A stretch of 64,000 bases of DNA from Synechococcus sp. (GTDB taxonomy: Bacteria; Cyanobacteriota; Cyanobacteriia; PCC-6307; Cyanobiaceae), in NCBI GenBank assembly GCA_047285535.1, contig JBJBDC010000001.1:1088136-1152135 (forward strand). Reading direction: 5' to 3'. The position numbers and the translations under genes are program-made. Position 1 is the stretch's first letter, and every line of letters begins with the position of its first letter. The notes beneath the pieces were generated by a model. It was not told the origin of the DNA. It was given only the letters and a program-made list of their open reading frames with translations, and searched no databases. This document shows, piece by piece, positions 36,425-55,675 of the stretch.

Positions 36425-39136
36425 GTGATGGCCAGTTCCATCGAAGCAATCTCGGATCTGCCCCAGAAAGAGTTACCAAACGAAATCCGCCGCTGTGAGC
36501 AGCGTGACTCCGGGAAGGTTCCATGGGACTTATGGGGGACTTACCTCAGCGACCGGCAGTGGGGGACCGTCCGGGAGGATTACTCCGCGGATGGCAATGC
36601 CTGGAAGTCCTTCCCATTCGATCAAAGCCATCTTCGGACTTACCGCTGGGGGGAGGATGGCCTGCTCGGGTTGTGCGACATGCAGGGAATGCTCTGTTTT
36701 GCCCCGGCACTTTGGAACGGTCGGGATTCAATCCTCAAAGAACGCTTGTTCGGCCTTGGGAATCCCGAAGGCAACCATGGTGAAGACATCAAAGACACCA
36801 TGTATCACTTGGCCGGAACCCCTACCGGCAGTTATTCCAAAGCCCTATACCGCTACCCCCAAAGCGCGTTTCCCTATCAACGTCTACGCGAAGAGAACCA
36901 ACGTCGTTCAAGGGCAGAATCCGAATTTGAGCTTGTTGACACTGGGATTTTTTCCAACAACAGCTTTTTCGACATTGAAATTGAATACGCCAAGGCCGAT
37001 GCAGAGGACATTTTTATTCGACTCTCCATCACCAATCAGGGTGCTGAGCCTGCTGAGCTTCATCTCCTGCCGAGTCTCTGGTACCGCAACACCTGGTCCT
37101 GGGGAGACAACAACAACCGACCAAGCCTTCATCTCTCAGGAGAAACACTGGTTTCCGAGGCGATCAACGGGCTTGGTTCCTACGAGCTGAGTTGCAGCGA
37201 GACAGGAACTTGGCTGTTCACCGAAAACGAAACCAACAGCGAAGCCTTATGGGCTCAACCTCTACCTCAGCCCTACGTCAAAGATGCCTTTCACCGATAC
37301 CTAATTCACGGACAAAGAGATGCGGTCAATCAGGGACAGCGAGGCAGCAAAGCCGCTCTACATCTTCATCACAACCTCAAAGCAGGAGAATGCTGGGTCA
37401 TCGACCTCCGTCTCCGCCGTCATCAAAACACGACAGGAAACGCATCTTTTGAGGCCTCAACCTCCACAAGCTTGATCAAACAGCGCCGTCAAGAGTGGAA
37501 GGAGCATCTGGAGTGGATCGCCCCAGGACTCAATGAAGAAGATCGAGCAATTCATGCCGCCGCCGGAGCTGGTTTGTTCTGGTGCAGAAAGTTTTACAAC
37601 TGGTACGTCGCACGCTGGCTAAGAGGAGACAGCACCGCAATCAGTCCGCCGAAACAGCGTTGGCTAACCGAAACAGCGTATTGGAAAACATTGCGCGCAC
37701 AAAACATCATCTCCATGCCTGACTGTTGGGAATACCCCTACTTCTGCCAATGGGATCTGATGTTTCACGCTGTGGCATTTGCTGAGTTCGATCCTGGCGA
37801 AGCAAAGCGACAGTCCCGCATGCTTAGGAAGGCGAGTTACACCGCCACTAGCGGACAATCGCCTGCCTATGAGTGGGCTCTGTCGGATGCCAATCCGCCG
37901 ATTGGGGCTTGGGCTGCTCTACGCATTTTTCAAATCAGTCGCCGCAACAACTGTGAAGGTGACTATTCCTTCTTACGTGCAAGTCTTCGAGAATTCCTAC
38001 TGGAATACGGATGGTGGGCCAACCGTACTGATCGCAATGGAGACAATCTATTTGAGGGAGGATTTTTAGGACTCGACAACATAGCTATTTTTGATCGACG
38101 CTATCCACTCAGAGACGGAAGCCGCATTGAGCAGTCCGATGGCACAGCCTGGATGGGATTATTTAGTCTAAATCTACTCCAAATAAGCGTTATTTTAGCC
38201 GAAGAAGACCGAAAAGAATATCTCGAAATATGCGAACGATTCATCAAAGATTTCAGCCGGATAACATTCTCTCTAAACAGCTCAAGCGGTCGTGGTTACG
38301 TAAACTGGGACGAGCAAGATGGATTTTATTATGATGTATTAAAAAGACCCGACAACTCCACTGACTACTTGAGAAATAGATCCATTAGTGGACTGATCCC
38401 TCTACTGGCTGTAGCAAGTTTTGATGCCAGTACAGTACAGGATATTCCATCGCTGGATATCAATAAAAGCCTCAAACAACTTGGGAAAGAACGGGGAGCT
38501 TCCTTTGACGCCATAGGCCATCTCGGCGCTTGGCATCGCAATCGCGTTCTATTCTCGATCGTCCCTCCTGCGAGGCTCAAACGAATTCTCAAGAGAGTAT
38601 TTGATGAAGACGAGTTTCTCTCTCCCTATGGGATCAGAAGTCTTTCTAAAATCTACGAATCAGAACCTTATTCCTATCAGCAGGGTGATGAATATGCCAC
38701 AATTACCTACACCCCTGGTGACAGCCCTGTTGCCATGTTTGGAGGAAATTCAAACTGGCGCGGGCCAGTTTGGATGCCAATTAATTTTCTTCTTATCGAA
38801 GCACTTCAGAAATATGGGCACTTTTTTGGCGAAGATTTCAAGATGGAATTCCCGACAGGATCAGGGGAAGAAATGACTCTCTGGGAAATTTCCCTCGAAC
38901 TGGAGAAACGATTAATCGGAATCTTTAGGCGCGATCAAAACCAGCGAAGAGCTTTTAATGGAGGAGTTGAGCTCTTCCAGAAGGACCCACTTTGGCGTGA
39001 TTTATTCCTTTTCAATGAATATTTTCATGGGTGTAATGGGTCAGGAGTAGGAGCAAGTCATCAAACAGGATGGACGGCAATCGTCGCCAAAATGATCACT
39101 CAACTTCAGCGACACCAGCCTATTAACCAGCCATGA
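36425..39136 (+). CDS. MGH1-like glycoside hydrolase (GH63 family)
   Basis: WGTYLSDRQWGTVREDYS, SMPDCWEYP, GGFLGLDNI, NSNWRGPVW, EYFHG, GASHQTGWT. Confidence 0.9.
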   Translation: MMASSIEAISDLPQKELPNEIRRCEQRDSGKVPWDLWGTYLSDRQWGTVREDYSADGNAWKSFPFDQSHLRTYRWGEDGLLGLCDMQGMLCFAPALWNGRDSILKERLFGLGNPEGNHGEDIKDTMYHLAGTPTGSYSKALYRYPQSAFPYQRLREENQRRSRAESEFELVDTGIFSNNSFFDIEIEYAKADAEDIFIRLSITNQGAEPAELHLLPSLWYRNTWSWGDNNNRPSLHLSGETLVSEAINGLGSYELSCSETGTWLFTENETNSEALWAQPLPQPYVKDAFHRYLIHGQRDAVNQGQRGSKAALHLHHNLKAGECWVIDLRLRRHQNTTGNASFEASTSTSLIKQRRQEWKEHLEWIAPGLNEEDRAIHAAAGAGLFWCRKFYNWYVARWLRGDSTAISPPKQRWLTETAYWKTLRAQNIISMPDCWEYPYFCQWDLMFHAVAFAEFDPGEAKRQSRMLRKASYTATSGQSPAYEWALSDANPPIGAWAALRIFQISRRNNCEGDYSFLRASLREFLLEYGWWANRTDRNGDNLFEGGFLGLDNIAIFDRRYPLRDGSRIEQSDGTAWMGLFSLNLLQISVILAEEDRKEYLEICERFIKDFSRITFSLNSSSGRGYVNWDEQDGFYYDVLKRPDNSTDYLRNRSISGLIPLLAVASFDASTVQDIPSLDINKSLKQLGKERGASFDAIGHLGAWHRNRVLFSIVPPARLKRILKRVFDEDEFLSPYGIRSLSKIYESEPYSYQQGDEYATITYTPGDSPVAMFGGNSNWRGPVWMPINFLLIEALQKYGHFFGEDFKMEFPTGSGEEMTLWEISLELEKRLIGIFRRDQNQRRAFNGGVELFQKDPLWRDLFLFNEYFHGCNGSGVGASHQTGWTAIVAKMITQLQRHQPINQP

Positions 39137-39189
39137 GACAGCTTGGTGCTACGCCGATAAAGTTGAATTATGGTTTTCTCTAAAACCTA

Positions 39190-39352
39190 ATGACCCTCTC
39201 CACCCAACAAGCGCATGATCGATGAAAGATTGCATTCAACATGAGGTGTTTGATGTCATCATCGACGAGTAGTTGAGCTGTGAATGCAGCCCTGATAAAT
39301 ACACTGGGCTGATGGCGAGCACGCAACTGTGGCCTCTGTCTCCTCGAAAGAT
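39190..39352 (+). pseudogene. Probable relic of a GMC oxidoreductase N-terminus
   Basis: EVFDVII..S*AVNAAL..L/ADGEH...LER aligns with EEFDVVIIGSGAGGGTLARALADSGH...LER of the next gene. Confidence 0.45.
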
Positions 39353-39590
39353 TTGAGGCACCCTTTCGAGCCATCTGAACAATGAGGGGGAGCCTGCAAT
39401 TGAAATGAATGAATGCATGAATCCATGACCTCGAATCCAGAAAGTTGGACACGGCTGAGTGAATACGTCAATCTGCTTCCGTAGAGACCGACAGGAGAGC
39501 TCCTGAAAGCGAACCTGAAATGACGGCCGGCCCGTCTTTCGAGATGAATCAAGCAGCAATAGACCGAGCAGATCCCTTTTGGAGACACCC

Positions 39591-41237
39591 ATGACAACAC
39601 CCCCCGTTCAAGCCCAAGAGCATGCTTGGAACACCCTTGCTAAAGAGCAAATCCGGTCGTCTGCTCGCTTAACAACGATCGAACCCCAGGGTGAAGAGTT
39701 TGATGTTGTCATTATTGGCAGTGGAGCTGGAGGTGGAACTCTGGCCAGGGCTCTTGCTGATTCTGGTCATTCGATCCTGATCCTCGAGCGCGGTGGCTGG
39801 CTTCCGAGAGAACCTCAGAATTGGGATCCGGTCGAAGTGTTCCAAAACGACCGTTACGTCTCCAAAGATCTATGGGAAGACAAAAACGGGGCAACCTTCC
39901 AACCAGGAAGTCATTACTTCGTTGGCGGTGCTTCCAAAATGTATGGCGCTGCCCATTTCAGGCTTCGCGAACGGGATTTCGAATCGGTGATGCACGTTGA
40001 CGGGGTATCCCCGGAATGGCCTCTTAAATACGACGTCTTTGAGCCCTATTACCGCAAAGCGGAAGAGTGGTATCACGTTCATGGGCTACGGGGTGAAGAT
40101 CCCTATGAACCACCTGCATCCTCTCCCTATCCCTATGAACCCATCAGCCATGAGCCACGGATGCAAAAGCTGGTTGATGATCTTCGTTCAGCGGGGTTAA
40201 GACCCTTTCACCAACCCACTGGCGTTGCTCTCAACGAATCTGCTCCAGCATTTAGTGACTGCGTACGCTGCAACCGGTGCGATGGTTTCCCTTGTCTTGT
40301 GCATGCCAAAGGGGATGCAGAAGTGATGGGTGTTAGGCCTGCATTAACGCATGACAACGTCAACCTTTTGACCAATGCCGAGGTTGTTCGACTCAATACC
40401 GACCCTACTGGTCATGAAGTAAGCAACGTTGTTGTAAATCACGAAGGGAAAGAACTTCATTTCAAAGGGAAGATTGTTGTGATCTCTGCAGGTGCTGCTA
40501 ATTCTGCGCGGCTTCTTCTAATGTCAGCGAATGAAGCACATCCTAACGGCCTAGCCAACAGCTCAGATCAAGTCGGAAGAAACTATATGTATCACAACTG
40601 TAAAGCTGTTGTGGCTCTAGCTCATGAACCCAATCACACCGTCTTTCAAAAAACGGTTGCCATTAATGATTGGTACTTCGGAGACAAAGACTTCGACTTC
40701 CCCATGGGGCATGTACAAATGACAGGCAAAACAAATGGAGCCATGATGAAAGGTTATAAGCCTCGACTTACAGCTCTAGCGCCAACATGGAGCATGGACA
40801 AAGTCGCAGAACATTCACTTGACTTCTGGATGCAAACAGAAGATTTGCCTAGGGCTGAGAATCGGATCAGCGTAAATCGTCAAGGAAAGATTCGTCTCAA
40901 CTACACCCCTACAAACAATCAAGCCTCTAAAGAATTGATGGGAAGACTAGAAGGTTTGCTGGATAAGCTGTATTTGAAAAATCATTTAGCGGAAAGGCAG
41001 ATTTATTTCGCATCAGCGATGGAGATTGCTGCTGTAGGTCATCAGTGCGGCACCTGTCGATTTGGCGAGGACCCAGCAACATCAGTTCTGAATCTGAACT
41101 GCAGGACCCACGACCTGGACAATCTTTACGTGGTTGACACCAGCTTCTTCCCCAGCAGCGCAGCTGTGAATCCTTCCTTAACAGCTGTGGCCAATGCCAT
41201 CCGCGTTGCAGACCACCTCAAAGAAAGACTGGGTTGA
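39591..41237 (+). CDS. GMC family FAD oxidoreductase with Cys cluster (GMC-1)
   Basis: GSGAGG, CVRCNRCDGFPC, catalytic-position His (GHQCGT) and Asn (NPSLT). Confidence 0.92.
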   Translation: MTTPPVQAQEHAWNTLAKEQIRSSARLTTIEPQGEEFDVVIIGSGAGGGTLARALADSGHSILILERGGWLPREPQNWDPVEVFQNDRYVSKDLWEDKNGATFQPGSHYFVGGASKMYGAAHFRLRERDFESVMHVDGVSPEWPLKYDVFEPYYRKAEEWYHVHGLRGEDPYEPPASSPYPYEPISHEPRMQKLVDDLRSAGLRPFHQPTGVALNESAPAFSDCVRCNRCDGFPCLVHAKGDAEVMGVRPALTHDNVNLLTNAEVVRLNTDPTGHEVSNVVVNHEGKELHFKGKIVVISAGAANSARLLLMSANEAHPNGLANSSDQVGRNYMYHNCKAVVALAHEPNHTVFQKTVAINDWYFGDKDFDFPMGHVQMTGKTNGAMMKGYKPRLTALAPTWSMDKVAEHSLDFWMQTEDLPRAENRISVNRQGKIRLNYTPTNNQASKELMGRLEGLLDKLYLKNHLAERQIYFASAMEIAAVGHQCGTCRFGEDPATSVLNLNCRTHDLDNLYVVDTSFFPSSAAVNPSLTAVANAIRVADHLKERLG

Positions 41238-41729
41238 TCAGCCCAAAAGGGCTTGAAGCTTAGGGGCCACAAATAAAAGATCAAAGCTGAAAGGACCACC
41301 TCCACTCGTCATCAGGACAAGACACATCACCACATAGACAGCAGCTTTCTCCCAGCTTGGCGGCTCCCCGACTCCCATGGGGCCGGCGTAGTCGCCCTCA
41401 GGGATCTGAAAGGGATCAGGGGCAATGAATGGAGAACCTAGGCTGATCTCCAGAACCATTGCATAAACCATTGACACAGCGATTGCCGCTGCGGCCAAGG
41501 GAGTCAACACTCCAGCAATCAGAGCGATTCCTCCCGCCCACATTGAAAAAGCCGAGAGAAAACAAAGCCATGCAGGCGTCTTCATCGCCGCGGCCCAAGT
41601 GTTCAGATTGATCATTTTGGGCCAGCCGTGACGAATGAAGACCAGGCCTGTGAACAACCTCAAAACAAGCAAGCCTCCACTGGCCGGACCATTCGGTACT
41701 GGAGGCACTATCAGGGAAACAAAGTCCAC
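41238..41729 (-). CDS. DoxX family membrane protein
   Basis: LRLFTGLVFIRHGWPK, GGGPFSFD. Confidence 0.88.
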   Translation of the reverse strand: MDFVSLIVPPVPNGPASGGLLVLRLFTGLVFIRHGWPKMINLNTWAAAMKTPAWLCFLSAFSMWAGGIALIAGVLTPLAAAAIAVSMVYAMVLEISLGSPFIAPDPFQIPEGDYAGPMGVGEPPSWEKAAVYVVMCLVLMTSGGGPFSFDLLFVAPKLQALLG

Positions 41730-41790: not shown

Positions 41791-42630
41791 TTAAGACTGA
41801 ATCCAGAGTCGATGGCCATCCGGATCGCTTCGAAGTCGTCCTTCACCAGCACCTGGTGCATGCACGAGAATCTGAGCGTAGAGCGCATTCTGCGGCAGCA
41901 GAGAGGCTGCCGAGGGTTGTAGTGGCTTCGGCTGGAGATAACGCAGAAACTCCACGCCACAGGGAGATGAACCACGCAATCCATGAATCGCCACCTGCGC
42001 GTTCGTCAGAGCATCGAGACGCTCCTGCTCAACACCTTTGTTGAGTGTGGCGTAGCGCAGTTGCAAGCCGAGCTCCACGCCATAGAACTGCAAACTGGAA
42101 TCACTGTCGCTAACAGCGATTGCAGTGTGGTCAATGCCCTGGAATAGAGGTGCATCAGGCTGCTGCCAGCGGGAATCGCCTTGATCGGCAGGAAACCATA
42201 GAAGTTCCATGGCATGACCAGCAGCATTGCGAAACTTCCATGCAGCCACACCGTTAGGTAACCACTGCGGAGATTCGGAGATCGCTGAGACAAGGGGGAT
42301 TAACTGCTCTACCGCGCGATGCATGTCGCTGACAACAATCGCCACGTGCTGGAACCAGAGGGTATTGGACGGACCAGGGTCAGTATCGATACGCGAATCG
42401 GCGCCCTCAAAGGTCACATAGTCGAGACGTTCCTTGCCCAACCGGTGATGTCGAACCACAGCTCTGCCCTCACTGAGCCCAAAACGTCGGTGGAGGGCTT
42501 CTCCCTGAACGACTGACTGCCCTTCATCAACAACGCCAAGAACTTCCAACAATGGATCAACACTTCCGGGCCTTGGCAAACTGAATGCCACCCCTTCAAC
42601 AGATAGGTCCTGGTAATACCTATCAACCAT
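41791..42630 (-). CDS. VOC/glyoxalase superfamily protein
   Basis: QHVAIVVSD, GHAMEL, IDHTAIAVSD, DPDGH. Confidence 0.85.
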   Translation of the reverse strand: MVDRYYQDLSVEGVAFSLPRPGSVDPLLEVLGVVDEGQSVVQGEALHRRFGLSEGRAVVRHHRLGKERLDYVTFEGADSRIDTDPGPSNTLWFQHVAIVVSDMHRAVEQLIPLVSAISESPQWLPNGVAAWKFRNAAGHAMELLWFPADQGDSRWQQPDAPLFQGIDHTAIAVSDSDSSLQFYGVELGLQLRYATLNKGVEQERLDALTNAQVAIHGLRGSSPCGVEFLRYLQPKPLQPSAASLLPQNALYAQILVHAPGAGEGRLRSDPDGHRLWIQS

Positions 42631-42733
42631 GGTGATGTGACCAGAACTGACTTTGTCTTAGCGCCGTTTACGCACGAAGCACTGCCGTGTTCAGTAAAAC
42701 TCGCTATTGAATGTCTGTTCTGTCCAGACTCCC

Positions 42734-43534
42734 ATGACCACTCAGGTTCCCAAGGCAATGAACTCTCTTTGTCTTCGAGATAAAGTAGTCATTGTGACCG
42801 GCGGCAATTCCGGTATTGGTAAAGCAATCGTAGAAGCTGTAGGCGCTCTAGGAGCAAAAGTGGTTATCGACTACCGCTCCCATCCCGATCGTACAGAGGC
42901 ACTGCTCGAGGAGATCGGTGAGCTAGGAGGCCAGGCCATCGGAGTCCAAGCTGATGTTTCCAAACTCGAGGACCTTCAGTACCTCATTGAAACCGCAGTG
43001 AAGACCTTCGGCAGGGTAGACGTCATGGTGAACAACGCCGGTATCGAAACCCGCACCTCCATCCTCAACACCACCCCTGAGGATTTCGACCAGGTGATGA
43101 ACGTCAATCTGCGCGGTGTTTTCTTCGCCACCCAGTACGCTGCGAAACAGATGATCGCCCAAGGAAGCGGTGGACGGATCATCAACATTTCCTCGGTTCA
43201 CGAGGATTGGCCGATGCCCGACAACACGCCTTACTGCGTAGCCAAGGGCGGTGTGCGCATGCTTACCCGCACCGCCGGCGTTGAATTGGCCAGCAAAGGC
43301 GTATCCATTGTGAACCTGGGCCCAGGCGCAGTGGCTACGCCGATCAACGACTCCACGATGAACAACCCTGAGCTGCTTGCCAAGCTGAATGCCGCCATTC
43401 CCATGGGGCGAATGGCTGATCCGAAGGAAATCGCCTCTGTGGTGGCGTTCCTCGCCAGCGACGGTTCCAGTTACATGACAGCCACCAGCGTGTTCGCTGA
43501 CGGCGGCATCATGATGAGCAGTCCCGGACTCTGA
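42734..43534 (+). CDS. SDR, glucose 1-dehydrogenase-like
   Basis: TGGNSGIG, NNAG, NISSVHE, YCVAK, PGAVATPIN. Confidence 0.88.
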   Translation: MTTQVPKAMNSLCLRDKVVIVTGGNSGIGKAIVEAVGALGAKVVIDYRSHPDRTEALLEEIGELGGQAIGVQADVSKLEDLQYLIETAVKTFGRVDVMVNNAGIETRTSILNTTPEDFDQVMNVNLRGVFFATQYAAKQMIAQGSGGRIINISSVHEDWPMPDNTPYCVAKGGVRMLTRTAGVELASKGVSIVNLGPGAVATPINDSTMNNPELLAKLNAAIPMGRMADPKEIASVVAFLASDGSSYMTATSVFADGGIMMSSPGL

Positions 43535-43949
43535 GCTCAAAAGCCTCGAATCCTGCACGGGCGATCGCGAGATCTTGATCAGGCGTCATCCCTGACACGC
43601 CGATCGCCCCCATTACCTCTCCCTGGAAGCGAAATACCAGTCCACCTGCCATCAAGGCACAGGGCTGATGAAGAACACCCTGAAGAGACAGTAAAGCGGT
43701 GCGACCAGCTGCAATCGACTGTTCAACGAAGACGCTATCCGATCCAGTCAGGGCCGCTGTGCGTGCCTTTGCCGCTGAAGCCTCCACACTCGCAACTGAA
43801 GCACCATCAAGCCGGCGAAACGTGATCAATATCCCAGCGGCATCCACTAGAGCGATCGACACGCGTGCTGACATCTGCTGAGCCATGACCATGGCCGCAT
43901 CAACAATGAGATCCGCATCGGCAAGATCCAAGCAGCGAATCATATGCAT
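43509..43949 (-). CDS. GlcG/HbpS family haem-binding protein
   Basis: IALVDAAG, RLDGA, AKARTA, GAIGVSG...QD. Confidence 0.85.
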   Translation of the reverse strand: MHMIRCLDLADADLIVDAAMVMAQQMSARVSIALVDAAGILITFRRLDGASVASVEASAAKARTAALTGSDSVFVEQSIAAGRTALLSLQGVLHQPCALMAGGLVFRFQGEVMGAIGVSGMTPDQDLAIARAGFEAFELRVRDCSS

Positions 43950-48473: not shown

Positions 48474-48570
48474 CAGAGTCTCGTCTTTGAATTTGGGTGA
48501 TGCTAAGACCCTTCCGCTTTGCGTTCGTTGAGACCGACAAGGAAAATAGGTCTAAACAAGTAAGCAGTCG

Positions 48571-49674
48571 ATGCCTGACTTTCTGATCTCTGCCCTCGAA
48601 CTGCTGGTCGGAATCGGACTCCTATTCGGCGGCGGTGAATTATTTGTTCAGGGTGCGGTCATCCTCGCCGTCATCCTCGGAGTGCCGCAGCTGGTCATTG
48701 GCCTAACGGTGGTTTCACTTGGTACCAGTGCTCCTGAATTCTTCGTCAGCATCGGTTCGGTCCTTCATGGGGCAGATGCTCTGGCTGTCAGCAACGTGGT
48801 TGGCAGCAACATTTTCAATGTTTTGGTCGTCCTTGGTTGCAGCGCCCTCGTCCTGCCACTGCGGGTGGAAAGCCGTTTGGTGAGAAGGGATGTTCCCCTT
48901 CTCCTAGCCGTGTCTGCGGCTGCATGGGGCATGGCATCAGCGGGACGAGTCACCTGGCAATCAGGGGTCGCTCTTTTGCTGGGTCTTGTTATCAACACTG
49001 TCTGGGAAATCCGGACCGCAAGGGAAGAACCAGAGGAAATGGAGCCTGCAGAGCCAGAGATTGACTTAGGCAGCGCACAACAAGGCTGGCTTAAAGCAAT
49101 GGGCCGCCTTTTGCTCGGCATTGTTGTCCTTGGTTTCGGAGCTCACCTTCTTGTGAAGGGAGCAACCGCCGTTGCCCTGAGTCTCGGAGTCAGTGAGGCC
49201 GTCATCGGGCTCACCATTGTTTCGGCTGGAACCTCCATGCCTGAACTGATTACCTCTTTGGTCGCGGCCTTGCGAGGGAGAACGGATCTCGCCATTGGCA
49301 ATGTTGTAGGCAGTTGTCTTCTGAATCTGCTTCTCGTACTTGCAGGAGGTGCGTTGGCATCAGGAGCACAGGGGCTTCATGTCACGACCGATTTAATCAA
49401 TGACGACATGCCTGTGATGATTTTGACCAGCCTTGCTTGCCTTCCAATCTTCTGGACAAAAGGACGAATTTCTAGACTTGAAGGTGGCTTACTCGTTGGT
49501 TTGTACATTCTGTACATCACTGACAACGTTCTACCCCGCACCGGACTCTCTTCTTGGTCGGATGAATTTCGCCTCATCATGCTTTGTGTTGTCTTACCAG
49601 CCGTTGTCGTGCTGATCGTGGTACAAGCCGCTCGCTATTGGAGACAACTAAAACGCCAAGGTCCTCAAACCTAA
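48571..49674 (+). CDS. Ca2+/Na+ antiporter (CaCA family)
   Basis: Two alpha repeats, GTSAPE/GTSMPE and NVVGS. Confidence 0.93.
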   Translation: MPDFLISALELLVGIGLLFGGGELFVQGAVILAVILGVPQLVIGLTVVSLGTSAPEFFVSIGSVLHGADALAVSNVVGSNIFNVLVVLGCSALVLPLRVESRLVRRDVPLLLAVSAAAWGMASAGRVTWQSGVALLLGLVINTVWEIRTAREEPEEMEPAEPEIDLGSAQQGWLKAMGRLLLGIVVLGFGAHLLVKGATAVALSLGVSEAVIGLTIVSAGTSMPELITSLVAALRGRTDLAIGNVVGSCLLNLLLVLAGGALASGAQGLHVTTDLINDDMPVMILTSLACLPIFWTKGRISRLEGGLLVGLYILYITDNVLPRTGLSSWSDEFRLIMLCVVLPAVVVLIVVQAARYWRQLKRQGPQT

Positions 49675-49761
49675 ACAATGACTTCAGCTTGTATTCCGTG
49701 ATGAAGGGATGACTGCTGAGCAAAAGCTGTTCATCCTGGAAAGGCCTAGATCGGCTTGGCG

Positions 49762-50262
49762 ATGCTTGAGCTGCTTCCCCCGCTCAACGACAAAAATCTT
49801 CCATGGATCGACGTTATCCATCCAATCGTGGTGCATTTCGTGATCGCTATGGCTCTGATCACGGTGGTGTTTGACCTGATTGGAGTTCTCACTCGGAGAC
49901 ACAACCTCTTTGAGGTGAGCTTCTGGAATTTGGTAGTGGCGACCGTTGCCATCTTCGTAGCCATCATCTTCGGACAGATTGAGGCAGGGTTGGCAACTCC
50001 TTATGGAGCATCAAGAGACATTTTGAATTACCACAGCACCCTTGGCTGGTCGCTGGCTGGAGTACTCGGCCTCCTTACAGGTTGGAGATACGTCGTCAGG
50101 CAAAAAGATCCAACTGTTTTGCCATCAGGATTTCTTGTCATTGATTCAATCCTGGCGGTTTTGGTGTTCTGTCAGGTCTATTTAGGAGACAAACTTGTTT
50201 GGGTTTATGGACTCCACACGGTGCCCGTGGTTGAAGCCGTGCGTAGCGGAGCTCTGTCATGA
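49762..50262 (+). CDS. DUF2231 membrane protein 1
   Basis: IHPIVVHFVIA, YHSTLG, LVWVYGLH. Confidence 0.85.
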   Translation: MLELLPPLNDKNLPWIDVIHPIVVHFVIAMALITVVFDLIGVLTRRHNLFEVSFWNLVVATVAIFVAIIFGQIEAGLATPYGASRDILNYHSTLGWSLAGVLGLLTGWRYVVRQKDPTVLPSGFLVIDSILAVLVFCQVYLGDKLVWVYGLHTVPVVEAVRSGALS

Positions 50263-50879
50263 TTTTTGGGGTCACCATTCCATCACCGGTGAATGAAATA
50301 GCCGACAAATTAGGAGCAAATGATCTCCCCTACGCAATTCCGATACATCCTAATTTAGTGCATTTAACTATTGGCCTATTTGCTATCGGAATAGCCTTTG
50401 ATTTTGCCGGCGCGTTTTATCCCTTAGAGAAAAGGGTCTTCCGCTTCTTAGCACTTCCAGCAACCCGAAGCGGTTTTCATGATGTCGGCTGGTACAACGT
50501 TCTTGCGTGTAGCGTGATCACCTTTTTCACCGTTGCCGCTGGCTTTTACGAAATGCTCCTTGCAGTTCCATTGCAAGGGATTCGCAGCATCATTGGCCAA
50601 AATGCAATCGACACAATGCTGTGGCATGCGATCGGAGGGGTCGCACTGCTCCTCATCATTGTGGGGATGGCGATCTGGCGAGGATTTCAGCGATTTTTGT
50701 GGCGTAAAGACTACGGGCGTCAGGTGAGTTGGCTTTATCTCGGATGCGGAGCTGTAGTGCTTGTCGCCATGGGCGTACATGGAAGTCTTGGGGCATGGCT
50801 TGCCAGTGAATTTGGCGTTCATATCACTGCAGATCAACTTCTTGCAGCCGGTGCCGATCTCAATGAGGTGTTGCCATGA
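50259..50879 (+). CDS. DUF2231 membrane protein 2
   Basis: IHPNLVHLTIG, WHAIGG, EFGVH; ATGA overlaps on both sides. Confidence 0.85.
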   Translation: MIFGVTIPSPVNEIADKLGANDLPYAIPIHPNLVHLTIGLFAIGIAFDFAGAFYPLEKRVFRFLALPATRSGFHDVGWYNVLACSVITFFTVAAGFYEMLLAVPLQGIRSIIGQNAIDTMLWHAIGGVALLLIIVGMAIWRGFQRFLWRKDYGRQVSWLYLGCGAVVLVAMGVHGSLGAWLASEFGVHITADQLLAAGADLNEVLP

Positions 50880-51811
50880 GTACCGCTACTCCAAAGAAGG
50901 GACCAAGCATCGGTGCGATTGTGATCATCACAATGGCCATTGCGATCAATTTGGCCATTTCCAAACTGATGGCGAACTGGTCTCTTAGTTGGTTTCCACC
51001 CCAAGCCTCGAGTGCAGCTCCTTACGTCGACAACCTATTCGCACTGGAGACGGGGATCGGCTCATTCATTTTTTTTGGTTGCACCGGCTTTATGGGCTGG
51101 GTGTTGTTGTTCAACAGGGCTGGCAAGTATGACGAAAGCGATGGGGCCCCGATCGAGGGAAATACCAAATTAGAAATCACCTGGACGATCATTCCCCTGG
51201 TGACAGTCTTTCTGATCGCCACGTATTCGATGAACGTCAATATGAAGCTTCAAACTCTCGGACCGAAGCACAAATACGCCATCGGATCTGATCCGACAGT
51301 CCTAATGGAGGCAGACCCCATTGCTGATGTAGGCCCAATTAATGTTATTGCCCGCCAGTGGAGCTGGGAATTCATCTATCCCAACGGAGTTCGGAGCTCA
51401 GAGCTACATCTCCCGATTGATCAACGTGCGAATTTCCACATGATCTCGGAGGACGTTCTGCATAGTTTCTTTGTGCCGGCCTTCCGGCTCAAACAAGACA
51501 TCATCCCTGGGAGCATCATTTCTTACAGCCTCACTCCCACGAAGGAAGGACGATTTCGACTTCGGGACGCCATGTTCAGCGGCGCTTATTTCTCACAGAA
51601 CCAGACCGACGTGATTGTCGAAACCGAGCAGGCTTTCGCCGAATGGTTAAAGACAACAGCACAACAGCCACTGCAACAGGGTCTTGATCCAAGTCGTGCT
51701 CTCTATGACCGCCGCATCGCACGCGGTGACAAGGGCTGGGCCACGGTACCGCCAGCTCCCGCACCGATGGTGAACGACCCCGGTGATCCCTCCATTCCTC
51801 ACGACGCCTGA
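50876..51811 (+). CDS. ctaCII: Haem-copper oxidase subunit II lacking the CuA motif (ARTO type)
   Basis: LEITWTIIP, QWSWEF, DVLHSF; CxExCGxxHxxM replaced by DAMFSGAYFSQN. Confidence 0.9.
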   Translation: MSTATPKKGPSIGAIVIITMAIAINLAISKLMANWSLSWFPPQASSAAPYVDNLFALETGIGSFIFFGCTGFMGWVLLFNRAGKYDESDGAPIEGNTKLEITWTIIPLVTVFLIATYSMNVNMKLQTLGPKHKYAIGSDPTVLMEADPIADVGPINVIARQWSWEFIYPNGVRSSELHLPIDQRANFHMISEDVLHSFFVPAFRLKQDIIPGSIISYSLTPTKEGRFRLRDAMFSGAYFSQNQTDVIVETEQAFAEWLKTTAQQPLQQGLDPSRALYDRRIARGDKGWATVPPAPAPMVNDPGDPSIPHDA

Positions 51812-51819: not shown

Positions 51820-53508
51820 ATGACAAGCAACACCTACGACCTCCGCATTCTCAAGGCACCCCATCCAGTTCCTGGAGCACCGGACAACTGGAAACGCTTC
51901 TTCAGTTTCAACACCGACGCAAAGGTGATTGGAATCCAATACATCGCTACAGCACTGTTCTTCCTTCTCGTGGGCGGACTCCTGGCCATGATCGTGAGGG
52001 GCGAATTGATCACGCCTCCCGCTGATCTTGTCGACCCAAGCGTCTACAACGGCCTCTACACCATGCACGGAACAGTGATGTTGTTCCTTTTTCTATTCCC
52101 AATCCTTAACGGCTTTAACAACCTATTGATTCCGACGATGATCGGGGCACCGGACATGGCATTTCCAAAGCTGAATGCCGCCGCGTTCTGGCTCGTGCCG
52201 GTGTTTTCAATCGTCTTAATGGGGAGCTTTTTCGCCCCCGGTGGACCCGCTTCATCGGGATGGTGGTCGTACCCACCAATGAGTCTGCAAAATCCACTCG
52301 GCCATTTCATCAATGGGGAGTTTCTATGGATCCTTGCAATAGCACTCTCCGGCATCTCCTCGATCATGGGTGCCATCAATTTCGTGACGACCATCATCCG
52401 GATGAGAGCTCCAGGGATGGGTTTCTTCCGAATGCCGATTTTCGTCTGGACTGCATGGGCAGCCCAGACCATCCAGTTGATAGGTCTACCCGCGCTCACT
52501 GGCGGAGCGGTCATGCTGTTGTTTGACCTCAGCTTCGGTACCAGCTTTTTCCGGCCGGAGGGTGGCGGTGATCCAGTTTTATTCCAGCATTTTTTCTGGT
52601 TCTATTCCCACCCTGCCGTTTACGTGCTGGTGCTTCCTGTGTTTGGCATTTTCTCAGAGCTCTTTCCCGTGTATTCGCGTAAGCCCCTTTTTGGCTATCG
52701 CTTTGTGGCAATCGCCTCCTTTGGAATCACCTTTCTCAGCCTGATTGTTTGGGCTCACCACATGTTTTACACAGGCACACCGAACTGGATGCGTCACATC
52801 TTCATGTTCACCACGATGCTCATTGCCATACCCACTGGAGTGAAGGTTTTCGCCTGGCTGGGAACACTCTGGGCAGGCAATTTGCGCTTGAGCACACCGA
52901 TGCTGTTCTGCATCGGAGGTCTGATCAACTTTATTTTTGCAGGCATTACTGGAGTGATGCTTGCCACAGTTCCAATTGATATTCATGTAGGCAACACCTA
53001 CTTTGTGGTAGCTCACTTCCACTATGTGATCTTCAACACCATTGTTTTTGGGGTTTTCGCTGGTATTTACCACTGGTTTCCAAAGTTCACTGGAAAGATG
53101 TATTACGAAGGTCTTGGGAAAGTCCATTTCGCACTCACATTCATCGGTGCCACACTCAACTGGCTTCCACTCCACTGGGCTGGGTTGCTGGGCATGCCCC
53201 GACGTGTTGCCTCCTATGACCCGGAATTCGCCATTTGGAACGTGATTGCAAGCATCGGCGCTTTCATGCTTGGCGTTGCCTCGATCCCCTTCATCCTGAA
53301 CATGGTGAGTTCCTGGGCTCGCGGACCCAAGGCTCCTCCCAACCCCTGGCGAGCAATCGGCCTGGAGTGGCTCCTTCCATCCCCACCTCCTGCCGAAAAC
53401 TTTGAAGACGATATTCCAACTGTGATTAGTGAGCCCTACGGCTACGGATTGGGGAAACCCTTAGTTGAGGACCAGGAATTCTATGTCCGCCGTTCCATGG
53501 AGGCCTAA
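51820..53508 (+). CDS. ctaDII: Haem-copper oxidase subunit I (ARTO type)
   Basis: TMHG, FYSHPAVY, WAHHM, AHFHY, GMPRR. Confidence 0.95.
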   Translation: MTSNTYDLRILKAPHPVPGAPDNWKRFFSFNTDAKVIGIQYIATALFFLLVGGLLAMIVRGELITPPADLVDPSVYNGLYTMHGTVMLFLFLFPILNGFNNLLIPTMIGAPDMAFPKLNAAAFWLVPVFSIVLMGSFFAPGGPASSGWWSYPPMSLQNPLGHFINGEFLWILAIALSGISSIMGAINFVTTIIRMRAPGMGFFRMPIFVWTAWAAQTIQLIGLPALTGGAVMLLFDLSFGTSFFRPEGGGDPVLFQHFFWFYSHPAVYVLVLPVFGIFSELFPVYSRKPLFGYRFVAIASFGITFLSLIVWAHHMFYTGTPNWMRHIFMFTTMLIAIPTGVKVFAWLGTLWAGNLRLSTPMLFCIGGLINFIFAGITGVMLATVPIDIHVGNTYFVVAHFHYVIFNTIVFGVFAGIYHWFPKFTGKMYYEGLGKVHFALTFIGATLNWLPLHWAGLLGMPRRVASYDPEFAIWNVIASIGAFMLGVASIPFILNMVSSWARGPKAPPNPWRAIGLEWLLPSPPPAENFEDDIPTVISEPYGYGLGKPLVEDQEFYVRRSMEA

Positions 53509-53512
53509 TTCA

Positions 53513-54118
53513 ATGACAGCAACCAACAACGAATTCCCGATCAATCATCAACCCGGTCATATCCAACATGAAGGCCATAACCTCACAGGTTTTATCATTT
53601 TCCTGTGTTCAGAAAGCATCATTTTTCTTGCATTTTTTACAGGGTTTGCGCTCCTGAAAATCACAGCACCCGAATGGCTCCCCGAAGGAGTTGATGGGCT
53701 CGAAACACGCATGCCTTTGATCAACACGATTATTTTGGTGAGTTCAAGCTTTGTAGCCTATTTCGCAGAGCGTTATTTGCATCGAGAGAACCTATGGGGG
53801 TTTAGAGCTTTTTGGCTTCTCACGATGGCAATGGGCACGTACTTCGTTTACGGCCAATATGTCGAATGGTCTGAGCTTCAATTCAGTTTGAGCAGTGGAG
53901 TTTTTGGAGGAACGTTTTATCTCCTAACTGGGTTCCATGGATTACATGTCATCACAGGAATCTTGCTGATGGCGTTGATGTTGTTTCGCTCCTTCAAGCC
54001 AAACAATTATGCAAAAGGTGAAATGGGCGTGACGTCTGTAAGTCTTTTTTGGCATTTTGTAGACGTTATTTGGATCATCCTTTACCTGTTGATCTATGTC
54101 TGGCAACGTACCAGCTGA
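53513..54118 (+). CDS. ctaEII: Haem-copper oxidase subunit III
   Basis: FLCSE, NTIILVSSS, TGFHGLHV, WHFVD. Confidence 0.93.
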   Translation: MTATNNEFPINHQPGHIQHEGHNLTGFIIFLCSESIIFLAFFTGFALLKITAPEWLPEGVDGLETRMPLINTIILVSSSFVAYFAERYLHRENLWGFRAFWLLTMAMGTYFVYGQYVEWSELQFSLSSGVFGGTFYLLTGFHGLHVITGILLMALMLFRSFKPNNYAKGEMGVTSVSLFWHFVDVIWIILYLLIYVWQRTS

Positions 54119-54157
54119 TCAATCTGAATTTTTAGATCTGCTGTCATTCCTCCAATC

Positions 54158-55675
54158 ATGATCATCGACGACCGCAACTACGACGTCATCATTATCGGCA
54201 GCGGTGCCGGTGGGGGCACCCTTGCAGGTGCCCTGAGTCGGAAAGGTCATTCCGTTCTCATGCTTGAGCGAGGAGGGGCCATGGCCCTCGAAGATCAAAA
54301 TGTTGCAGATGTGGACTTATTTCGCAAAGATCGTTATCACCCAAAGAATGAACGCTGGTTTGGGCCTGACGGGGATCCGTTTGCTCCACAAACCAATTAC
54401 TCCCTTGGTGGCAACACCAAAATCTGGGGCGCAGTGTTGGAGCGCATGCGCGAAGAGGATTTCAATGAATTACCTCTTCAAGAAGGCGTTTCCCCTGCTT
54501 GGCCGATTCTTTACGACCAGCTAGCTCCTTATTACACCGCAGCTGAAAAGCTATACAGAGTTCACGGTTGTTCGGGTATCGACCCCACCGAACCAGCCCG
54601 GTCTACTCCTTTTGAGTATGAACCAAAACCGCTGGTTTCTTTTCTTGAGCCACTGCGTGAAGCACTCAAACGTCAAGGATGTCAGCCGTATGACTTGCCT
54701 TTGAGCTGGTCCAACAGCACAGAAGACCCAAGTGGTGATTCACAGCTGTACGGCATCGACAATGCCGATCACTCCAAACTCACAATCAAAACTCAATCAA
54801 AAGTCACGCGATTACATGTCAATCCACTCGGACGCTCTGTAAAAGGTGTTGAAGCTGATGTTGCTGGAGAAACTTGGCTGTTCACTGCAGACTTGATCGT
54901 GCTTGCCGCCGGCGCCATTAATACTCCTGCCATTCTGTTGAGGTCCATCTCGAACCATCATCCCCGCGGCCTAGGCAATAAATCTGATCAGGTTGGTCGC
55001 AACTTGATGAATCTCCAACTCACCTCAATTCTGCAGCGGGCGACCGAACGAAACGACGGTAGCTATGCACGATCGCTTGGAATTAATGACTACTACTGGG
55101 GAGATAAAAACGTCTCTTTCCCTCTTGGCCACATTCAAACCGCAGGAGGAGTTTTACAGGATGCCCTATTTGCAGAATCGCCACCAGTCCTTTCCCTTGT
55201 CACCAAAATGATTCCAGATGTTGGGCTGGAGCGACTGGCATCTCGATCGGTAGCTTGGTGGGCCATGACCGAAGTCTTACCAGACCCACAGAACAAGGTT
55301 TGGCTGAACAACGATCAAATCCGAATCAACTACATCCACAACAACCGCGAAGCCCATGATCGACTGGTTTACCGCTGGATTGACACGCTCAAGGCCATCG
55401 AAGCAGACCCTCTCACTCGGGTCGTGAGCACGGCACCCACCCACCCTCGGGGGGAAGCTCCCTTAAGTGCGGTTGGGTATGCGTGCGGCACATGCTGTAT
55501 GGGAACCGATCCAGCAGCTTCTGTAGTCGACCTCTCCGGGAAATGTCATGAGCTCGACAACCTATATGTCGCCGATACCAGCGTATTCCCGAGTTGTCCA
55601 AGCGTTGGGCCAGGTCTGACAACCATCGCCTTATCGCTCCGGCTAGCTGAAACCCTCAGTGAACGCATCACCTGA
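54158..55675 (+). CDS. GMC family flavoprotein with atypical active site (GMC-2)
   Basis: GSGAGG and overall GMC motifs; GYACGT and GPGLT at the His/Asn positions; no Cys cluster. Confidence 0.9.
   Translation: MIIDDRNYDVIIIGSGAGGGTLAGALSRKGHSVLMLERGGAMALEDQNVADVDLFRKDRYHPKNERWFGPDGDPFAPQTNYSLGGNTKIWGAVLERMREEDFNELPLQEGVSPAWPILYDQLAPYYTAAEKLYRVHGCSGIDPTEPARSTPFEYEPKPLVSFLEPLREALKRQGCQPYDLPLSWSNSTEDPSGDSQLYGIDNADHSKLTIKTQSKVTRLHVNPLGRSVKGVEADVAGETWLFTADLIVLAAGAINTPAILLRSISNHHPRGLGNKSDQVGRNLMNLQLTSILQRATERNDGSYARSLGINDYYWGDKNVSFPLGHIQTAGGVLQDALFAESPPVLSLVTKMIPDVGLERLASRSVAWWAMTEVLPDPQNKVWLNNDQIRINYIHNNREAHDRLVYRWIDTLKAIEADPLTRVVSTAPTHPRGEAPLSAVGYACGTCCMGTDPAASVVDLSGKCHELDNLYVADTSVFPSCPSVGPGLTTIALSLRLAETLSERIT

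Follow-up and report, generated by a model that had tools for sequence, protein, structure and literature searches.

A putative sugar-splitting and sugar-oxidising islet separated by three genes from an alternative oxidase operon in Synechococcus sp.

In Synechocystis, the type-1 alternative oxidase (ARTO) is encoded by ctaCII-DII-EII. The cox3/Qox operon of Anabaena PCC 7120 is described as five genes, alr2729-alr2730-coxB3-coxA3-coxC3, and no flavoprotein is named in that description (PMC6616624). Among flavoproteins of the GMC fold, the gamma-alpha-beta FAD-glucose dehydrogenase of B. cepacia (6A2U) and the fructose dehydrogenase of Gluconobacter (7W2J) carry a His/Asn catalytic pair and, at the site of the 3Fe-4S cluster, a loop rich in Cys, the Fe-S loop passing electrons to a membrane partner (PMC6719666); the mycobacterial GMC flavoprotein MftG connects the cytoplasmic redox pool to respiration (PMC11778925). 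As to the release and oxidation of glucose, GgH of Mycobacterium hassiacum belongs to a GH63 group of glucosylglycerate/mannosylglycerate hydrolases (PMC5381378) and GghA of Synechocystis is an intracellular hydrolase freeing glucose from a compatible solute (PMC6753628), marine Synechococcus being reported in this set of papers as lacking gghA (PMC5381378/PMC6753628); a glucose dehydrogenase/gluconate kinase bypass has been described in some cyanobacteria (Lyngbya), whose 1GCO homologues are active glucose dehydrogenases (bioRxiv 10.64898/2026.04.01.715859), and a gluconate shunt in methanotrophs (PMC8062543).

The stretch of Synechococcus sp. DNA analysed here (the window, 64,000 nucleotides) holds a putative sugar-splitting and -oxidising islet separated by three genes, over 4.1 kb, from an ARTO operon. 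The islet is bordered by a tRNA-Leu which, in 14/14 other loci of the genus, either flanks the islet or directly adjoins pyrC; the spacer genes, found in all 14 of those loci, are pyrC (TIGR00856, 440 bits), a BicA-type transporter gene (849.7 bits with the BicA model, under its cut-off of 880) and a Ca/Na antiporter gene (TIGR00367, 233 bits). All the genes named in a preliminary description of this DNA were recovered with Pfam; the two-domain VOC protein, the cupin and the small Nif11-like ORF had gone unmentioned there. The features are the following.

36277..36362, plus strand: tRNA-Leu(UAA), left border of the variable islet (ARAGORN, Rfam)
36425..39136, plus: GH63-like (alpha/alpha)6 glycoside hydrolase, 903 aa (Pfam MGH1-like_GH 67.1 bits, Glyco_hydro_63 45.1 bits)
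39579..41237, plus: GMC1, Fe-S-motif GMC flavoprotein dehydrogenase (Pfam GMC_oxred_N/C)
41238..41729, minus: DoxX-family membrane protein (Pfam DoxX, 45.7 bits)
41791..42630, minus: two-domain VOC (glyoxalase/dioxygenase superfamily) protein (weak Pfam Glyoxalase match)
42707..43534, plus: SDR, glucose 1-dehydrogenase-like (NCBIfam PRK07231 'glucose 1-dehydrogenase', 220.8 bits, cut-off 215)
43509..43991, minus: HbpS/GlcG-like protein (Pfam HbpS-like, 93.4 bits)
43954..44217, minus: small Nif11-like ORF (Pfam Nif11; TIGR03798 50.2 bits, cut-off 32.3)
44240..45187, minus: SMP-30/gluconolactonase-type lactonase, SGL (Pfam SGL, 145 bits)
45199..45654, minus: small cupin protein (Pfam Cupin_2, 31.9 bits)
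45684..49674: spacer of three core genes outside the system, pyrC (minus), bicA-type (minus), Ca/Na antiporter (plus)
49756..50262, plus: DUF2231a membrane protein (Pfam DUF2231, 124 bits)
50259..50879, plus: DUF2231b membrane protein (Pfam DUF2231, 131 bits)
50876..51811, plus: ctaCII, ARTO subunit II lacking CuA (Pfam COX2, COX2_TM)
51820..53508, plus: ctaDII, haem-copper oxidase subunit I (Pfam COX1, 512 bits)
53465..54118, plus: ctaEII, subunit III, start uncertain (Pfam COX3, 121.8 bits)
54158..55675, plus: GMC2, ARTO-operon flavoprotein devoid of both Fe-S loop and His/Asn pair (Pfam GMC_oxred_N/C)

The oxidase half resembles the type-1 ARTO of Synechocystis and Anabaena in its CuA-less subunit II, its haem-copper subunit I, its subunit III and the two small membrane-protein genes preceding the cta genes. 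The lack of CuA, proposed beforehand, is borne out: the motif is absent from ctaCII and from 23/23 orthologues and present in the positive control, the other CtaC of the genome (L138). DUF2231-DUF2231-ctaCII-DII-EII-GMC2 is a conserved six-gene operon, its order being kept in 7/7 distant families examined, in all of which GMC2 follows ctaEII, and in 13 of 14 other loci of the genus; in a sample of 151 cyanobacterial genomes DUF2231b was detected in 65, and of the 70 GMC matches counted at E<=1e-90, 50 are at a distance of 3.8-5.9 kb from it. In contrast to Anabaena cox3, the window and the majority of the cyanobacteria sampled have a GMC gene after ctaEII, and several lineages add a sugar module to the operon. 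In alignments of 15 orthologues, H22, H27, H93 and H154 of DUF2231a and H30, H35, H123 and H188 of DUF2231b are invariant. Cytochrome bd was not found in this genome.

The two GMC proteins are paralogues (36% identity over 497 residues, E 6e-107) and both translations contain the four shared blocks previously noticed, SDQVGRNYM/SDQVGRNLM, INDWYFGDK/INDYYWGDK, FPMGHVQ/FPLGHIQ and LDNLYVVDTS/LDNLYVADTS (GMC1/GMC2); neither has a twin-arginine motif or a hydrophobic leader, in keeping with the claim that a Tat signal is missing. GMC1, whose likely start is the ATG at 39591, has as its top solved relative the alpha subunit of the B. cepacia FAD-glucose dehydrogenase (E 8e-41, 143 bits), followed by the large subunit of fructose dehydrogenase (101 bits). 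The suspected Fe-S motif is indeed that of the Fe-S FAD-glucose/fructose dehydrogenases: a conserved Cys loop (CVRCNRCDGFPC; C228/C231/C234/C239) aligns with Cys212/218/222 of the Burkholderia enzyme, and the conserved H488/N531 with its His476/Asn519 (PMC6719666), loop and His/Asn pair being invariant in 14/14 GMC1-type proteins; a 3Fe-4S loop of this type is predicted. GMC1 differs from 6A2U and 7W2J in that no gene for a Tat hitch-hiker subunit or for a multihaem cytochrome c subunit lies close by, the partner genes being those of a terminal oxidase, DoxX and DUF2231, in that the FAD-linking His105 is replaced by Tyr at the aligned residue, and in that it lacks a signal peptide, and is therefore read as a cytoplasmic enzyme.

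In GMC2, whose FAD GxGxxG motif begins at residue 14, a deletion of 20 residues takes the place of the Cys loop. In an alignment of the window's GMC2 with 13 orthologues, the loop is missing from all 14 sequences, the His site is Y, F, S or N (His in one of the 14) and the Asn site G or S, so that a second sugar dehydrogenase of the conventional kind is unlikely; L131-L133 have ARTO-position GMC proteins with a complete Cys loop. We read GMC2 as an accessory ARTO flavoprotein; its dN/dS is about 0.05-0.06. For both GMC proteins the best NCBIfam match is MftG, but the scores (71 and 82.5 bits) are far under the cut-off of 387 and mycofactocin genes are absent here.

The islet contains two candidate glucose dehydrogenases, GMC1 and the SDR. 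The latter, already called glucose-1-dehydrogenase-like, passes the PRK07231 cut-off and has Bacillus glucose 1-dehydrogenases (1RWB/1GEE/1GCO, E 4e-63) as closest solved relatives; gluconolactonases (3E5Z, E 1e-54; 3DR2, E 1e-47) occupy the same position for the SGL protein, as its proposed lactonase identity would have it. The resemblance to the Lyngbya bypass and the methanotroph shunt thus lies in an SDR homologous to Bacillus 1GCO and in the path from free glucose to gluconolactone/gluconate; the differences are that gluconokinase was not found in this genome (no match to TIGR01313; 105 bits with TIGR01314, cut-off 648) and that the window adds a flavin/Fe-S dehydrogenase, a GH63 hydrolase and the oxidase linkage. 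DoxX recurs by GMC1-type genes in L023/L047, L128, L130, L134, L135, L050 and L053, and the VOC gene close to them in L028 and L030-L033; the VOC assignment, made by the Atlas for the window's protein, is matched by 77.6 bits for the orthologue in L047. Cupin homologues come after ctaE in L023/L047 and L130. The Nif11-like ORF, probably the real gene within a 165-aa frame (43954-44451), sits between GlcG and SGL in L049, L050, L052 and L055.

The hydrolase had been likened to the glycerate-glycoside hydrolases of GH63; the domains agree with this, MGH1-like_GH being common to these enzymes and to the window's protein, but at about 900 aa it is distant in sequence from GgH and GghA and has no close kin among solved or characterised enzymes, its sole solved relatives being weakly matching eukaryotic glucosidase I entries. 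The gene is retained in 11 of 15 genomes of the genus (dN/dS ~0.04). A GgpS match (783 bits, cut-off 569) indicates that this genome makes glucosylglycerol.

Within the family, sister genera have the two halves side by side, where ARTO-GMC2-GH63-GMC1-... is read in L050, L053, L055, L134 and L135, and partly in L051 and L054, which are limited by contig ends. At least three other cyanobacterial families show independent rearrangements of the pairing, CuA-less cta operons adjoining the GMC1/SGL/DoxX/VOC/cupin/SDR/GH set as GH15-SGL-hydrolase-GMC1-DUF2231a-b-ctaCDE-DoxX (L128), GH63...MIP-GMC1-UbiA-NDH2-like-DUF2231a-b-ctaCDE (L129) or ctaCDE-cupin-SGL-VOC-DoxX-SDR-GH-GMC1 (L130, L023/L047). Among 72 non-Cyanobiaceae loci beyond these, mostly of Actinomycetota, 26 have GH15, with a median interval of 50 bp to the GMC gene, 27 have cytochrome bd subunits, 32 an NDH-2-like gene, 16 G6PD and only 11 the SDR. 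The ndh-zwf-GH15-GMC-cydAB strings of Actinomycetota share with the window an Fe-S GMC protein of the same family, 55-62% identical to GMC1 and encoded next to a hydrolase that liberates glucose and a terminal oxidase of the quinol type, although GH15 and cytochrome bd are non-homologous to GH63 and ARTO, and DUF2231, DoxX and GMC2 are missing. Our literature search found no paper on these strings, nor one describing the linkage of the sugar module to ARTO. The contiguity in sister genera and the pairings in other cyanobacterial families speak against a fortuitous proximity of the two blocks.

The preliminary description had coupled the two blocks, naming phylogenetic profiling as a check and independent distribution as counter-evidence. 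Adjacency in several layouts partly supports the linkage; strict coupling is not upheld, the distributions being partly separate: among the 151 sampled genomes, DUF2231b is missing from 20 of the 53 that carry a GMC1-type gene, and a GMC1-type gene from 32 of the 65 that carry DUF2231b (odds ratio of co-occurrence 3.4, uncorrected for phylogeny), and ARTO also occurs without the islet. Since kin are not independent, such locus and genome counts overstate.

The reading that we prefer, and to which we give about an even chance, is that the region represents two halves of one recurrent cyanobacterial neighbourhood, separated in this genus by three core genes: the type-1 ARTO operon DUF2231a-DUF2231b-ctaCII-ctaDII-ctaEII-GMC2, and a putative cytoplasmic module for the release and oxidation of sugar (GH63-like glucosidase, GMC1, SDR, gluconolactonase, DoxX, VOC, GlcG-like, cupin). 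The GH63-like enzyme would act on an alpha-glucoside inside the cell, a compatible solute (for instance glucosylglycerol or glucosylglycerate) or else a glucan fragment, and set glucose free; GMC1, possibly docked on DoxX, would oxidise glucose at C1 and pass electrons from FAD through the Fe-S cluster to plastoquinone at the cytoplasmic membrane face, an oxidation which the SDR may also carry out with NAD(P)+ as acceptor; the lactonase would convert the lactone to gluconate, and ARTO would re-oxidise the plastoquinol. Electron-transfer roles for DoxX and DUF2231 are pure inference. The production of glucosylglycerol and the lack of cytochrome bd in this genome favour the scheme. The retention of GgpS in 4/4 tested genomes of the genus without GH63 counts against it, as do the partly separate distributions, the altered catalytic sites of GMC2, the failure to find gluconokinase, the presence of two candidate glucose dehydrogenases and the remoteness of the GH63-like protein from characterised enzymes.

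It is possible, if rather unlikely, that the modules are neighbours only through shared regulation or inherited synteny, with no dedicated electron path between them; ARTO would then drain the plastoquinone pool whatever the reductant, GMC1 would use another acceptor, and the sugar module would serve ordinary cytoplasmic catabolism of osmolyte- or glycogen-derived glucose, the SDR yielding NAD(P)H. The stepwise decay of the islet within the genus, during which the ARTO operon persists, favours such independence: the operon is kept beside an empty islet in G009, G016 and G002, and GH63 alone in G014 and G017. The same may be said of the GMC1-type genomes lacking DUF2231b, of the possibility that the SDR alone oxidises glucose, and of the osmotic-stress genes (MscS, MIP, Na+/H+ exchangers) flanking the module in L023, L129 and L123, which fit osmolyte turnover rather than respiration. 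On the other hand, adjacency to an oxidase in several layouts is not easily ascribed to chance or mere co-regulation, the oxidases concerned are non-homologous (ARTO in cyanobacteria, cytochrome bd in other phyla), and the Fe-S loop of the characterised relatives serves precisely the hand-over of electrons to a membrane partner (PMC6719666).

Alternatively, GMC1 may act on another substrate, at C3 of a glycoside (like a glucoside 3-dehydrogenase) or at C2 of gluconate (like a gluconate 2-dehydrogenase), rather than as a glucose 1-dehydrogenase; keto-sugar or quinone-type products would then be handled by the VOC, cupin, GlcG-like and DoxX proteins. Ahead of a possible gluconate step, an NAD(P)-type glucose dehydrogenase and a lactonase are already present in the module, gluconokinase was not found in the genome, the Fe-S GMC family has several sugar specificities, fructose dehydrogenase being the second-best solved match, and the pairing of DoxX with a VOC dioxygenase resembles quinone-detoxification gene pairs of Bacillus. 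We regard this as improbable, as the closeness of GMC to GH15 and the rarity of the SDR in the 72 loci point to the hydrolase product as the GMC substrate, and the top solved relative is a glucose enzyme, by 143 bits against 101. That the islet has lost its function in this lineage and is decaying towards the empty state of its relatives is very improbable: losses between tRNA-Leu and pyrC are nested across 15 genomes of the genus (GH63 and a cupin remnant in G019, GH63 and SDR in G008), but all nine frames are intact in the window, four genomes keep the full set, and the retained genes have dN/dS of 0.03-0.10, similar to pyrC and bicA, dS being saturated.

What the window contributes is the split layout together with a natural deletion series; the adjacency of ARTO to sugar genes offers a testable lead to what feeds this poorly understood oxidase.

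Pfam and NCBIfam recovered in the window every gene that the preliminary description had assigned to the two blocks, namely the variable islet between tRNA-Leu(UAA) and pyrC and the operon of the cyanobacterial alternative respiratory terminal oxidase (ARTO).

Gene order from tRNA-Leu(UAA) to the end of the ARTO operon
36277-36362, tRNA-Leu(UAA), start of the islet gene order
First gene after tRNA-Leu, GH63-like hydrolase, 903 aa (Pfam, NCBIfam)
39579-41237, second islet gene, GMC flavoprotein GMC1, 552 aa (Pfam, NCBIfam)
Third islet gene, minus strand, DoxX
Fourth islet gene, minus strand, two-domain VOC protein
Fifth islet gene, plus strand, glucose 1-dehydrogenase-like SDR
Sixth islet gene, minus strand, HbpS/GlcG-like protein
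43954-44451, seventh islet gene, minus strand, Nif11-like small frame (TIGR03798, 50.2 bits, cut-off 32.3)
Eighth islet gene, minus strand, SMP-30/gluconolactonase protein (SGL)
Ninth islet gene, minus strand, cupin
45684-49674, three core spacer genes: pyrC, BicA-type transporter, Ca/Na antiporter
49756-55675, plus strand, DUF2231-DUF2231-ctaCII-ctaDII-ctaEII-GMC2, neighbours overlapping by 4 bases or 8-39 bases apart

The Rfam scan of the window matched the tRNA alone, and neither promoter-like sites (6, against a shuffled mean of 14.8) nor terminator-like sites (19, against 19.9) exceeded expectation. The genes bicA, pyrC, cupin, SGL, Nif11 and GlcG (43509-48473, minus strand) all point the same way and stand 0-29 bases apart; a 97-base spacer (48474-48570) separates this run from the divergently oriented Ca/Na antiporter gene and ARTO operon (48571-55675, plus strand). 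Given this divergence, a bidirectional control region could be shared by the islet-side and ARTO blocks. The consensus promoter scan of the spacer returned no site. The Nif11-like frame (minus strand) and the lactonase gene overlap at the 3' end of the latter; the real Nif11-like gene is likely the 87-aa part that starts at an internal Met (43954-44217). In four compared loci (L049, L050, L052, L055) homologues lie between GlcG and SGL, so that this frame accompanies the module. A ParB-like nuclease gene and dnaA (57393-59377, Pfam), just past gor, place the region near dnaA.

The ARTO half consists of six genes that form a conserved operon. The two DUF2231 genes lie upstream of the oxidase genes with 4-base overlaps, an order identical in 7/7 distant families, and ctaDII (COX1, 512 bits) and ctaEII (COX3, 121.8 bits) directly follow the gene for subunit II, their frames abutting or overlapping (Pfam). 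The CuA ligands (CxExCxxxHxxM) are missing from the CtaCII of the window and from 23/23 orthologues examined, while the motif is present in the second CtaC of the same genome (L138: CAELCGPYHGGM), which bears out the earlier claim of a CuA-less subunit II. In the part of PMC6616624 considered here, the Anabaena ARTO operon is alr2729-alr2730-coxB3-coxA3-coxC3 and ARTO counts, mainly by analogy, as a quinol oxidase lacking CuA; the Anabaena oxidase genes come after two genes for small membrane proteins, the position that the two DUF2231 genes occupy in the window. By its CuA-less subunit II, its subunit order and the two preceding membrane-protein genes, the oxidase of the window fits a type-1 ARTO. 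That same account of the Anabaena operon names no flavoprotein, whereas the window operon ends in a second GMC gene, GMC2 (54158-55675).

In a set of 41 genomes, including 24 from the same genus and 16 from other families, a full-length GMC2 orthologue (at least 70% identity) was found in 20/24 same-genus genomes, the other four being three incomplete ones (63-82% complete) and G015; among the other families 7/16 genomes carry an orthologue (49-52% identity), with the order DUF2231a-DUF2231b-ctaC-ctaD-ctaE-GMC in 7/7 loci. Across 151 cyanobacterial genomes, each at least 90% complete and spread evenly over the class, DUF2231b occurs in 65, and 50 of the 70 GMC matches at E<=1e-90 sit 3.8-5.9 kb from it on the same contig; the remaining matches are mostly GMC1-type genes or lie on small contigs. 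Within the genus, CtaCII identity to the window copy (ctaCII, 50876-51811) ranges from 60-65% up to 91-95% (L034-L048), and over the same loci the flanking DUF2231b and CtaDII are 84-96% and 86-99% identical, a pattern that suggests recombination or at least two allelic forms in the CuA-less subunit II.

The DUF2231 proteins gave little purchase: the AlphaFold model of DUF2231b, built from 15 sequences, reached a pLDDT of just 62, and among 1.84 billion representatives a profile search returned only 108 clusters, mostly fragments. Three of these relatives (P0005, P0009, P0019) are about 300 aa long and end in a conserved extension, some 110 residues at the C-terminus, that matched no Pfam family and has no obvious cofactor motif. 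The complex prediction for DUF2231a, DUF2231b and GMC2 (score 0.01, mark 0.32) says nothing for or against binding. A literature search lying mostly outside the subscription journals found nothing on DUF2231 bearing on ARTO, nor any link of ARTO or ctaCII to a GMC or similar oxidoreductase in cyanobacteria.

The two flavoproteins are related (36% identical, E 6e-107); the four sequence blocks quoted earlier as common to them are present in both translations, and inspection of these confirmed that neither carries a signal peptide. The closest solved relatives of both are the alpha subunit of the Burkholderia cepacia FAD-glucose dehydrogenase (BcGDH) and the large subunit of the Gluconobacter fructose dehydrogenase (FDH). 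In GMC1 the Cys loop CVRCNRCDGFPC aligns to the CCGNNNCMPICP region of the BcGDH complex (6A2U), that is with the 3Fe-4S loop Cys212/218/222, at least three Cys being kept in 14/14 GMC1-type proteins aligned; H488 and N531, invariant in 14/14, align with His476 and Asn519, which are named as catalytic in the portion of PMC6719666 consulted. BcGDH/FDH-type complexes comprise a Tat hitch-hiker small subunit and a multihaem cytochrome c, whereas the GMC1 locus lacks both: no such domain was detected by Pfam in the 21 frames of the locus (36.4-59.4 kb).

That GMC2 could be a second sugar dehydrogenase was rejected, since a 20-residue deletion replaces the Cys loop in 14/14 orthologues and the His/Asn pair is substituted: the His site is Y, F, S or N, with H in 1/14 orthologues (Y/F in this genus, S/Y in Cyanobium-type genomes, H/Y/N in distant families), with G or S at the Asn site. 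GMC2 is thus, judged from its residues, not a normal GMC dehydrogenase; the retained FAD motif, the many other invariant positions and a dN/dS of about 0.05-0.06 point to a protein maintained for other chemistry. In three further lineages (L131-L133) the GMC at the ARTO position has a full Cys loop but N/S at the catalytic pair, and these proteins fall outside the GMC2 clade (14 rows, SH-aLRT 100) in a quick 49-sequence tree.

The islet half reads as a conserved sugar module. The GH63-like protein passes the family models for the catalytic (alpha/alpha)6 domain (PF22422, 67.1 bits, cut-off 27; PF03200, 45.1 bits, cut-off 22.4). Solved structures, searched with the sequence by itself and with a profile, gave no entries other than glucosidase I (E 9e-6 and 4e-9), so that the protein is remote from all solved enzymes but eukaryotic glucosidase I, itself a weak match. 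Close kinship with the characterised glucosylglycerate/mannosylglycerate hydrolases was not borne out by these searches. Against curated glucose 1-dehydrogenase models the SDR scores 220.8 bits with PRK07231 (cut-off 215) and 257.5 bits with PRK08936 (cut-off 420); its best solved relatives are the Bacillus glucose 1-dehydrogenases 1RWB/1GEE/1GCO (E 4e-63), with FabG 14 orders of magnitude behind, and two cyanobacterial homologues of the Bacillus enzyme are described as active NAD(P)-glucose dehydrogenases in the part of the 2026 preprint 10.64898/2026.04.01.715859 drawn on here. The lactonase belongs to the six-bladed propeller family SMP-30/gluconolactonase (PF08450, 145 bits) and, with the gluconolactonase relatives 3E5Z (E 1e-54) and 3DR2 (E 1e-47), is a putative gluconolactonase; the HbpS/GlcG-like protein matches PF03928 (93.4 bits), and searches of solved structures and of the Atlas placed the VOC protein at superfamily level only. 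In distant cyanobacteria, GMC1-type genes repeatedly adjoin SDR, GH63 and VOC homologues (L026-L033).

The linkage of the two blocks is frequent, not obligatory. The ARTO operon of sister genera within the family leads without a break into GH63-GMC1 and the remaining islet genes (L050, L053, L055, L134 and L135, and, seen in part, L051 and L054). In other families the string is GH15-SGL-hydrolase-GMC1-DUF2231a-b-ctaCDE...DoxX on one strand (L128), GH63-DUF1003-MscS-MIP-GMC1-UbiA-NDH2-like-DUF308-DUF2231a-b-ctaCDE (L129), or ctaCDE-(CDF)-cupin followed by SGL/VOC/DoxX and then SDR-GH-GMC1 (L130, L023/L047), the CtaC of L047 being likewise CuA-less. A GMC1-type gene lies within 25 kb of DUF2231b in 9/151 sampled genomes, from four families. 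The profiling of co-occurrence proposed in the preliminary description cuts both ways: adjacency recurs, but of the 151 genomes 33 have both genes, 20 the GMC1-type gene only, 32 DUF2231b only and 66 neither (odds ratio 3.4, a raw value that ignores phylogeny). Within the genus, 15 genomes were compared from tRNA-Leu to pyrC.

Islet content in the genus
This genome, G005, G007, G013: full islet
G018: islet without GlcG
G024: islet without SGL and GlcG
G001: GH63, GMC1, DoxX, VOC and SDR kept
G008: GH63 and SDR kept
G019: GH63 and a cupin fragment kept
G014, G017: GH63 only
G009, G016, G002: empty islet, ARTO operon kept
G015: empty islet, ARTO operon lost, GMC2 remnant

This stepwise loss, together with the cross-tabulation, indicates that the two modules can work apart. 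In G015 (L046 5403-5534) only the last 44 or so GMC2 codons are left between gor and the Ca/Na antiporter, and in G008 (L040 4233-6230) about 2 kb of DNA separates tRNA-Leu from GH63, a distance of at most about 100 bases in the other genomes. Where retained, the islet genes evolve under constraint, with dN/dS of 0.03-0.10 against 0.04-0.07 for pyrC/bicA, values that are rough, dS being saturated and undefined for many pairs.

A foreign tRNA islet as the main explanation was rejected, divergence from sister genera being alike in the two blocks (GMC1 75/66%, GMC2 73/71%); the counterpoint comes at a deeper level, where the quick tree groups Cyanobiaceae GMC1 with rows from non-cyanobacterial phyla (SH-aLRT 99). 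Cyanobiaceae GMC1 is nearer to Actinomycetota and other phyla (55-62%) than to other cyanobacteria (about 50-55%), as is the SDR (64-70% against 36-45%), and an old horizontal transfer is likely.

A pattern scan over 185,579 species genomes gave 79 loci, with an SDR nearby in 23 and GH63 in 17. Outside Cyanobiaceae there are 72, mostly in Actinomycetota, also in Chloroflexota, Planctomycetota, Acidobacteriota and others, with GMCs 53-62% identical to GMC1. Neighbour counts in these 72 interrelated loci are lower bounds, obtained by crude calling of frames up to 6 kb from the GMC gene: some glycoside hydrolase of any type in at least 32, trehalase-like GH15 in at least 26 (median 50 bp from the GMC), an NDH-2-like flavoprotein in at least 32, cytochrome bd subunit I or II in at least 27, a CydDC-type ABC transporter in at least 14, G6PD in at least 16 and aldose 1-epimerase in at least 10. 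In favour of a link between the blocks, the actinobacterial strings repeat the theme of the window with a hydrolase and an oxidase that are not homologous to GH63 and ARTO; the same literature search found nothing on a cluster of GMC, cytochrome bd and trehalase or glucose dehydrogenase.

As to the substrate, the genome encodes GgpS (783 bits) and hence makes glucosylglycerol. In the parts of PMC6753628 and PMC9948718 available to us, gghA is reported absent from marine Synechococcus, the former leaving room for an "alternative, so far unknown" degradation route of glucosylglycerol-type solutes; this reported absence (PMC6753628) makes GH63 a candidate gene for such a route in marine Synechococcus, although GgpS is still present in four genus genomes that lack GH63. 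Several other genomes have mechanosensitive channels, a MIP-type channel and Na+/H+ exchangers next to the module, which would fit osmolyte turnover. No gluconokinase above cut-off was found in the genome, nor was cytochrome bd, which leaves ARTO as the only haem-copper/bd-type quinol oxidase candidate found in it.

The coupling proposed in the preliminary description therefore stands in part: both blocks belong to one recurrent neighbourhood, but GMC2 is no second sugar dehydrogenase, the roles proposed for DoxX and DUF2231 are hypothetical and the blocks are separable. This neighbourhood plausibly carries sugar electrons to oxygen. A bolder version, which we regard as improbable, makes ARTO the end of a private wire from sugar to oxygen: the His-rich DUF2231a/b pair, with four invariant His each, would form an entry module in the membrane that bears metal or haem; GMC2, its hydride-abstraction chemistry lost, would be an electron relay docked on this pair and would receive electrons by direct protein contact from the Fe-S dehydrogenase GMC1. 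Were this true, sugar electrons would reach oxygen unmixed with the photosynthetic quinone pool, ARTO would be no free plastoquinol oxidase, and the actinobacterial GH15-GMC-NDH2-cydAB strings would be the quinone-pool version.

The cytochrome bd parallel across phyla suggests that bacteria have a general, undescribed means of burning glucose from stores or osmoprotectants directly in a respiratory branch. Among the cyanobacterial terminal oxidases ARTO is the least understood, and in the literature searched no statement was found on what specifically feeds it; the flavoprotein of the operon, the two His-rich membrane proteins and the adjoining sugar-oxidation module provide named genes with which to study it, and for physiology the genus offers a natural deletion series, in which the full set, GH63 alone and the empty site are all represented, together with one genome from which ARTO is deleted.
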